From Escherichia coli (GTDB taxonomy: Bacteria > Pseudomonadota > Gammaproteobacteria > Enterobacterales > Enterobacteriaceae): a stretch of DNA of 64,000 nucleotides. Below are positions 1,161 through 1,200 of this stretch, one piece after another. The stretch lies in assembly GCF_013122565.1 (NCBI RefSeq), contig NZ_CP053258.1, one strand, 5' to 3'. The notes beneath the pieces were generated by a model. The model worked only from the letters and a program-made list of their open reading frames with translations. It ran no database searches and was not told the origin of the DNA. The translations under genes and the position numbers were made by a program. Every line of letters begins with the position of its first letter. The first letter of the stretch is position 1.

Positions 1161-1200
1161 GCTAAGGTTGAAGGGGCGTTCCAGCCCCTTCAACCTTAGC
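1161..1200. other. Perfect 16-bp inverted repeat (hairpin) abutting the yabP stop codon
   Basis: gctaaggttgaagggg-cgttccag-ccccttcaaccttagc; the arms are exact reverse complements. Confidence 0.7.

Follow-up and report, generated by a model that had tools for sequence, protein, structure and literature searches.

A perfect hairpin occupies positions 1161-1200 of a 64,000-nucleotide (nt) stretch of Escherichia coli DNA (contig NZ_CP053258.1, assembly GCF_013122565.1; hereafter the window), between the convergent genes rluA and espY1. It is read here as a chimeric relic of an old terminator, a fragment of an insertion sequence (IS) and a copied patch of 9 nt, a reading to which a probability of roughly 0.7 is given. 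The hairpin descends from an intrinsic terminator, yet it lacks the U-tract of such a terminator on the strand of its own gene. Its origin combines known processes, an IS junction and a template switch, and no new kind of element is involved.

On the plus strand the hairpin reads GCTAAGGTTGAAGGGGC-GTTCCA-GCCCCTTCAACCTTAGC. The arms (1161-1177 and 1184-1200) are 100% complementary over 17 base pairs (bp), 10 of which are G-C pairs, and enclose a loop of 6 nt, GTTCCA on the plus strand and TGGAAC on the espY1 strand. The first-pass annotation of this DNA had rightly recorded a perfect palindrome, while its count of a 16-bp stem and an 8-nt loop was off because the first and last loop bases also pair, as a closing C-G. 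The strong fold that it supposed was confirmed by calculation at about -33 kcal/mol on either strand, with minimum free energies of the RNA of -33.9 kcal/mol (plus) and -33.0 kcal/mol (minus), z-scores of -8.6 and -8.8, respectively, and none of 200 shuffles folding equally well. This is the longest perfect hairpin within the 64-kb window. When the window was shuffled 30 times, the longest stems had 8-11 bp; analytically, about 4e-5 stems of at least 17 bp would be expected. As stem length and folding energy are both far beyond chance, the hairpin is taken to be real. It is composed of the following parts.

1161-1200, no strand: the hairpin, with a perfect 17-bp stem and a 6-nt loop.
1161-1169, plus strand: outer left arm GCTAAGGTT, DNA related to the IS only (IS consensus GCTCAGGTT), transposase codons.
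1170-1186, no strand: junction overlap GAAGGGGCGTTCCAGCC, which runs from the inner left arm across the loop into the first 3 nt of the right arm.
1184-1191, minus strand: inner right arm GCCCCTTC, which the espY1 strand reads as GAAGGGGC, the same as in the paralog described below and the ascending arm of the espY-family terminator.
1192-1200, no strand: outer right arm AACCTTAGC, a 9/9 reverse complement of 1161-1169.

The GC-rich stem-loop of an intrinsic terminator is present on both strands. Beyond the stem, the espY1 sense strand reads AGTAGCGTGGG and carries no T-tract, so that the U-rich tract of about 7-9 nt that would directly follow the stem is absent from that strand. On the plus strand the stem is followed by TTATTCTGGA, with 5 T in 8 positions, and a terminator scan flagged the plus strand only. 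Both the missing T-tract on the gene side and the statement that this is not a simple intrinsic terminator had been anticipated by the first-pass annotation, and the T-tract appears to be missing because the junction with the IS fragment replaced it.

The ancestry of the loop and inner stem was traced through a distant relative of the adjoining gene. A tblastn search identified an EspY paralog of 278 amino acids (aa) with 40% protein identity, which 207 genomes carry between thiB and sgrR. The 3' end of this gene has the sequence ...GCAATTATTGATTGAGCCAGAATAATAAATAGG GAAGGGGC AGGAAC GCCCTTTC TTTTTTAAG, with a run of six T (TTTTTT) after GCCCTTTC, and folds as a canonical intrinsic terminator of -14 to -15 kcal/mol with a stem of 8-11 bp. 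The corresponding sense strand of espY1 reads ...GCAATTATTGAATGA(T/G)CCAGAATAA GCTAAGGTT GAAGGGGC TGGAAC GCCCCTTC AACCTTAGC AGTAGCG.... A BLAST search of all E. coli genomes, a database of 28 Gb, with the paralog module aligned it to K-12 positions 59254-59310 over 57 nt (84.5% identity, E = 4e-6). These positions equal window 1226-1170, and the match ends inside the distal arm, 9 nt before the distal end of the hairpin. Homology to the paralog terminator was found for the stem, the loop and the adjoining 3' untranslated region (UTR). Judged from these alignments, native espY DNA makes up the loop and the inner 8 nt of the right arm, while the outer left arm (1161-1169) is without a counterpart in the paralog terminator.

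In local alignments, the similarity between espY1 and the paralog spans 1226 to 1170, that between espY1 and the IS spans 1186 and below, and the two overlap at 1170-1186. This overlap resembles both the IS (GAAGGTGCGTACCGCC) and the reverse-complemented paralog terminator (GAAAGGGCGTTCCTGCC), and 11 of 13 bases are shared by the transposase sequence GAAGGTGCGTACC and the reverse-complemented terminator GAAGGGGCGTTCC. Position 1175 in the arm is G, as in the terminator, whereas every IS copy has T, because the overlap zone carries the base of the terminator.

The left arm forms the end of an IS remnant of the Tn5/IS50 type, whose extent and terminal repeat are as follows.

829-1186, plus strand: truncated left end of an ISEc13-like (Tn5/IS50-type, IS4 family) IS, delimited by alignments to ISEc13-family copies.
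829-847, plus strand: degenerate left terminal inverted repeat of the IS, CTGCCTCTTGTACATAAAT, given as CTGTCTCTTATACACAAGT in intact copies.

In the remnant, the degenerate left inverted repeat is followed by a 5' leader and by a transposase pseudogene made up of the first ~60 codons, and the RefSeq annotation has a pseudogene for a "transposase DNA-binding-containing protein" ending at the hairpin. The window was aligned to five ISEc13-family copies, two of them intact (L001, L006, L007 and L008 were among the five), and colinear homology was unbroken from 829 to about 1186. The intact protein of the family carries the Pfam domains Tnp_DNA_bind, DDE_Tnp_1 and Dimer_Tnp_Tn5 and matched the Tn5 transposase in the PDB with E = 6e-84, and we take the CTGTCTCTTATACACAAGT repeat to resemble the outside or mosaic end of Tn5. 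A terminal repeat and colinearity to copies with a Tn5-type DDE transposase were thus both found. In all five IS copies the left arm and loop correspond to GCTCAGGTTGAAGGTGCGTACCGCCTGATG, which continues into the transposase coding sequence (..AQVEGAYRL..). None of the five contains the right arm, whose sole relative there is the reverse complement of the left-arm and loop segment.

The ISEc13-family copies are ~90% identical to the remnant, with the ~10% of differences spread throughout. In strain Z1323CEC0014, a gene-conversion patch of IS type ends within the left arm and creates a C.T mismatch, and this hairpin variant folds with -29.8 compared to -33.9 kcal/mol. An apparent reciprocal patch occurs in the IS copy of strain Z1323CEC0013, of which the first ~160 bp are converted to the remnant type. 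Seemingly reciprocal conversion patches were thus noted in two chicken isolates (1349-1510 in L030 and 2501-2656 in L001), with a full ISEc13-like copy elsewhere in the chromosome. A clustering of substitutions near the IS truncation, considered as a trace of repair errors, was rejected since the comparison copy of Z1323CEC0013 is a recombinant.

The third component is the outer right arm, block 1192-1200. On its two sides stand CCAGAATAA and GAAGGGGC, both perfectly conserved with the paralog, while the block itself matches the corresponding 8 nt of the paralog at only about 4 positions. It is the exact complement, at 9 of 9 positions, of 1161-1169, which is related to the IS only. The patch lengthens the stem from 8 to 17 bp and changes the energy from -14.7 to -33 kcal/mol, so that the changed block is both an exact complement of the opposite flank and one that increases pairing, as would be expected of a template switch. 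The block cannot have come from simple joining and bears what looks like the signature of templated synthesis on an existing 8-bp stem. Quasipalindrome template switching is a documented mutational mechanism of E. coli, observed with thyA and lacZ reporters (PMC7202029), and template switching has been proposed to keep natural inverted repeats perfect (PMC5941160).

An origin in three steps would account for these components. The ancestral espY1 would have ended in an ordinary intrinsic terminator with the sense sequence GAAGGGGC-NGGAAC-GCCC(C/T)TTC followed by a T-tract, a form still present in the paralog between thiB and sgrR. A downstream ISEc13-like element would then have been fused to the terminator, either through illegitimate recombination at short homology or through a deletion. 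The crossover zone would be the 13-17 nt of chance similarity between transposase codons for ..VEGAY.. and the loop with its descending arm. This join would have deleted the terminator T-tract and most of the IS and placed transposase-gene DNA right behind the stem. In the last step, the nascent strand may have folded on the 8-bp stem and copied its own 5' flank in a quasipalindrome template switch, by which an exact 9-nt complement of the IS flank would have taken the place of the ~8 native nt that separated the stem from the stop-codon region. Alignment shows the homology on which the first two steps, native terminator and IS junction, would be built, while the template switch is what the pairing of the outer arms suggests.

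Several points weigh against this reading. The chief one is that the "native" state is known from a single paralog family with 40% protein identity. Neither an espY1 ortholog with an intact T-tract nor a junction allele lacking the 9-nt patch turned up among the sampled E. coli genomes or in metagenomes; scanning the latter for the T-tract form gave the same paralog only, and protein searches of plasmids and phages yielded one paralog besides records that looked chromosomal. Nor was the exact variant of the source IS found, so the crossover cannot be placed with single-base precision. Compared with the IS, the loop has an additional A for which the reading does not account, and the second and third steps could have been one complex event. 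On the RNA side, the absence of a 3' end in K-12 that is reported below weighs little because the gene is a poorly expressed pseudogene there, and the reads downstream of the hairpin could start at an unmapped promoter and not result from read-through.

The hairpin was found at a single locus. With up to 3 mismatches allowed, the arm 17-mer had no second site in the window outside the hairpin, and 2,084 of the 5,426 complete E. coli genomes each held the 501-bp neighbourhood of the hairpin once. A search with 58 nt that had the hairpin at their centre matched 2,071 genomes, 2,014 of them at 100% identity. Across 100,044 species, represented by one genome each, the arm 17-mer occurred 20 times, compared to ~35 expected by chance (own arithmetic). 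Among these species genomes the palindrome was absent from all sequence not derived from E. coli, and both arms occurred together in only one contig, the 1.6-kb JAIJJM010000692.1 (L022) of a Collinsella metagenome-assembled genome. It is 96.7% identical to window 696-2349 and is almost certainly an E. coli rluA-espY1 binning contaminant. Rfam covariance models gave no match at E <=1 against window 700-2400. The hairpin is not a repetitive extragenic palindromic (REP) sequence or bacterial interspersed mosaic element (BIME), nor an attC site or a member of an Rfam family. The dispersed repeat family that the first-pass annotation had named as a possible refutation did not materialize, and that candidate was rejected, as the genome-wide search found one place per E. 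coli genome and chance-level matches of the 17-mer elsewhere. Searches of the literature on yabP/yabQ, EspY1 and ECs0061 yielded nothing on this hairpin.

The spacer between rluA and djlA (window 795-2265) is a presence/absence polymorphism among E. coli genomes. In ~3,340 of the 5,426 genomes it is without the espY1 islet and holds 115-150 bp of REP-type sequence, while ~2,080 carry the islet, the GC content of which is lower, at about 40-47% across most of it. The two forms diverge exactly at the stop codons of rluA and djlA. An identical hairpin was present in all sampled divergent espY1 alleles, including those with proteins 73% identical to that of the window, which implies that it arose once, before the alleles split. 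After this single origin it was inherited unchanged in every sampled espY1-bearing E. coli lineage, as the alleles show.

Present function was assessed from published transcription data of K-12, the only strain covered. Of the Term-seq 3' ends curated by Adams et al. 2021 (PMC7815308), not one lies at 5926x-5933x, whichever the strand, and the base of the stem is accordingly without a mapped 3' end in K-12, where the gene is a poorly expressed pseudogene. DirectRNA-seq of K-12 with and without bicyclomycin places a Rho-termination region at 60116 (+), antisense to rluA, with 280 espY1-sense reads counted over the 800 nt that lie between the distal hairpin edge and this position (PMC7815308). 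Position 60116 (+) equals about window 365 on the minus strand. A promoter scan predicted no minus-strand promoter between the hairpin and rluA, and the reads therefore fit read-through followed by Rho termination. As the espY1 strand has no U-tract, it is not expected to support canonical intrinsic termination. Read-through of the hairpin by RNA polymerase is probable on this strand, with Rho ending the transcript downstream, while the stem would serve at most as a barrier to 3' exonucleases. On the plus strand, the tail UUAUUCUGG could have weak intrinsic-terminator character and would then oppose antisense transcription into espY1 from the side of the IS and rluA. Of the two roles proposed in the first-pass annotation, an RNA-stabilising 3' structure is physically plausible but gains no support from the K-12 Term-seq data, in which the suggested 3'-end mapping shows no end at the hairpin, and nothing found speaks for a protein-binding palindrome.

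Other explanations were compared with the chimeric relic. The extended hairpin may have been selected as an element that terminates or insulates between convergent rluA and espY1 or stabilises the 3' end of the espY1 mRNA, with the stem extension compensating for the lost U-tract, a possibility to be held only tentatively. It would agree with the very stable stem, with a sequence that is identical in 2,014 of the 2,071 genomes and in espY1 alleles that have diverged, with the T-rich tail and terminator-like flag of the plus strand, and with hairpins being known barriers to 3' exonucleases. However, the IS remnant shows roughly the same conservation (window and K-12 differ at ~1-2 positions in 200 nt), and a hairpin no more conserved than the adjoining remnant gives no evidence of selection. 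Moreover, no K-12 3' end maps to it, sense-strand RNA runs past it to the Rho site, the C.T-mismatch variant exists, and the stem shows too little variation and no covariation. A "terminator repair", in which the template switch built the 17-bp stem after the IS junction had removed the U-tract of this effector gene, and the stem was kept because it again defines the 3' end or protects the mRNA with no U-tract present and blocks antisense transcription from the side of the IS and rluA, is considered unlikely.

A pure fold-back (snap-back) inverted duplication would make the entire right arm de novo, with a break in the IS after which the 3' end primes on GCC/GGC microhomology and copies the last 14-17 nt. 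The IS homology of left arm and loop and the lack of the right arm in any IS copy fit this, as does the non-self-complementary loop, which suits fold-back priming better than the opening of a covalently closed hairpin. It is nevertheless very improbable and was dropped, since the loop and inner right arm proved to be native espY DNA: homology to the paralog covers the loop, 8 nt of the inner right arm, the neighbouring 3' UTR and the end of the gene, and G at 1175 is the base of the terminator and T in every IS copy. A covalent hairpin made by a transposase and opened off-centre, similar to P-nucleotide formation, was rejected because GTTCCA is not self-complementary and because the site lies 350 bp inside the IS and not at its end. 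Scarcely credible is a protein-binding or recombination site or a dispersed palindrome (REP/BIME, attC, Xer/dif-like or transposase site), for which a perfect palindrome right after a horizontally acquired gene, as attC sites are, could be cited. Against it stand the single copy per genome with the arm 17-mer at one locus in the window, the 20 occurrences compared to ~35 by chance among the species genomes, the lack of an Rfam family, and both arms being explained by other origins. An attC site is an imperfect palindrome of 55-140 nt with R''/L''-L'/R' cores (GTTRRRY) and extrahelical bases, located beside an integron. An integron attC was rejected as the hairpin has 40 nt, is perfectly paired without extrahelical bases, and its GTTGAAG and CTTCAAC do not fit GTTRRRY.

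Among known systems, the intrinsic terminator of the espY paralog shares with the hairpin the inner 8 bp (GAAGGGGC/GCCCCTTC), the NGGAAC loop, the 3' UTR, the gene end and the position after the gene. It differs in that the U-tract of the hairpin is replaced by IS DNA on the gene strand, and in its stem of 8-11 bp with G.U pairs at about -15 kcal/mol, compared to 17 perfect bp at -33 in the hairpin. Quasipalindrome template-switch mutations, as in the Ripley model, likewise turn a block by the stem into the exact complement of the opposite flank. Unlike the reporter mutations, the hairpin would be a natural event fixed across a species lineage, deduced from the paralog, and the template of its patch is foreign IS DNA from an earlier rearrangement. 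With IS-remnant junctions of the ISEc13/IS50-Tn5 group it has in common the left repeat, the leader, the transposase N-terminus and a truncation at the patch of 11/13 similarity, whereas its junction lies within a terminator stem-loop, so that the structure is composite, and no target-site duplication or right end is left. Similar to REP/BIME and other 3' stabiliser stem-loops, it is GC-rich and lies in a 3' UTR between convergent genes, and an exonuclease-barrier role is plausible; unlike REP/BIME, it occurs once per genome, pairs perfectly and has no sequence relationship to REP.

The remaining features of this end of the window are as follows.

1-122, plus strand: end of rapA.
135-794, plus strand: rluA, the convergent neighbour; the islet starts directly past its stop codon.
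844-871, plus strand: stem-loop CCCCGAGTCCGGGG followed by nine T, which resembles an rluA terminator inside the left end of the IS.
1201-1977, minus strand: espY1, intact, 258 aa, a pentapeptide-repeat effector of the type III secretion system (RefSeq: EspY1).
About 2266-3081, minus strand: djlA.
3336-5690, plus strand: lptD.

The K-12 counterpart of espY1 is the frameshift-split pair yabP and yabQ. In the window the hairpin directly abuts the TAA stop of espY1 (complement of 1201-1203). Other espY1 alleles and the paralog use a different frame with a TGA stop at the equivalent of window 1211-1213, and the C-terminus is open in both frames (window 1204-1240), giving ...LLN(D/E)PE* at TAA or ...NAIIE* at TGA. 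The allele in the window ends in ...LLNDPE*, and the TGA of the other form sits 10 nt deeper in the gene. As alleles use different C-terminal frames, the adjacency of stop codon and hairpin stated in the first-pass annotation applies to the allele in the window but is allele-specific and does not extend to espY1 in general. The frame of the window allele was switched by a 1-nt deletion near 1233. The 15-bp pentapeptide repeats vary in number (window 1314-1411), with EspY1 proteins ranging from 216 to 286 aa, and many public EspY1 entries are named "UDP pyrophosphate phosphatase", which looks like a propagated misannotation.

The stem-loop at 844-871 starts 15 nt inside the IS remnant, and intact ISEc13-family copies carry CCCCGAATCCGGGGATTTGTTATTT with the T-run interrupted. 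Its location inside the IS and its retention in intact copies suggest that the rluA terminator is seemingly IS-derived. In islet-bearing strains, IS DNA thus seems to have been exapted as this terminator, its T-tract lengthened. A second long perfect hairpin occurs at 33097-33136, where an AT-rich stem of 16 bp encloses a loop of 8 nt (ATGATATTGGCAGAAA...TTTCTGCCAATATCAT), within an open reading frame of 816 aa at 31692-34142 on the plus strand.

The chimeric relic explains an odd feature beside rluA (~59.3 kb in K-12), in a part of the E. coli chromosome that has been studied intensively, without a new element, and its 40 bases offer a natural example of a short-homology junction, the loss of a U-tract and the "perfection" of a quasipalindrome. 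It predicts that espY1 transcripts are ended by Rho and not intrinsically. For annotators, strong hairpins beside IS fragments may be scars and not designed signals. Were "terminator repair" true, template switching could create an adaptive regulatory RNA structure from foreign DNA.
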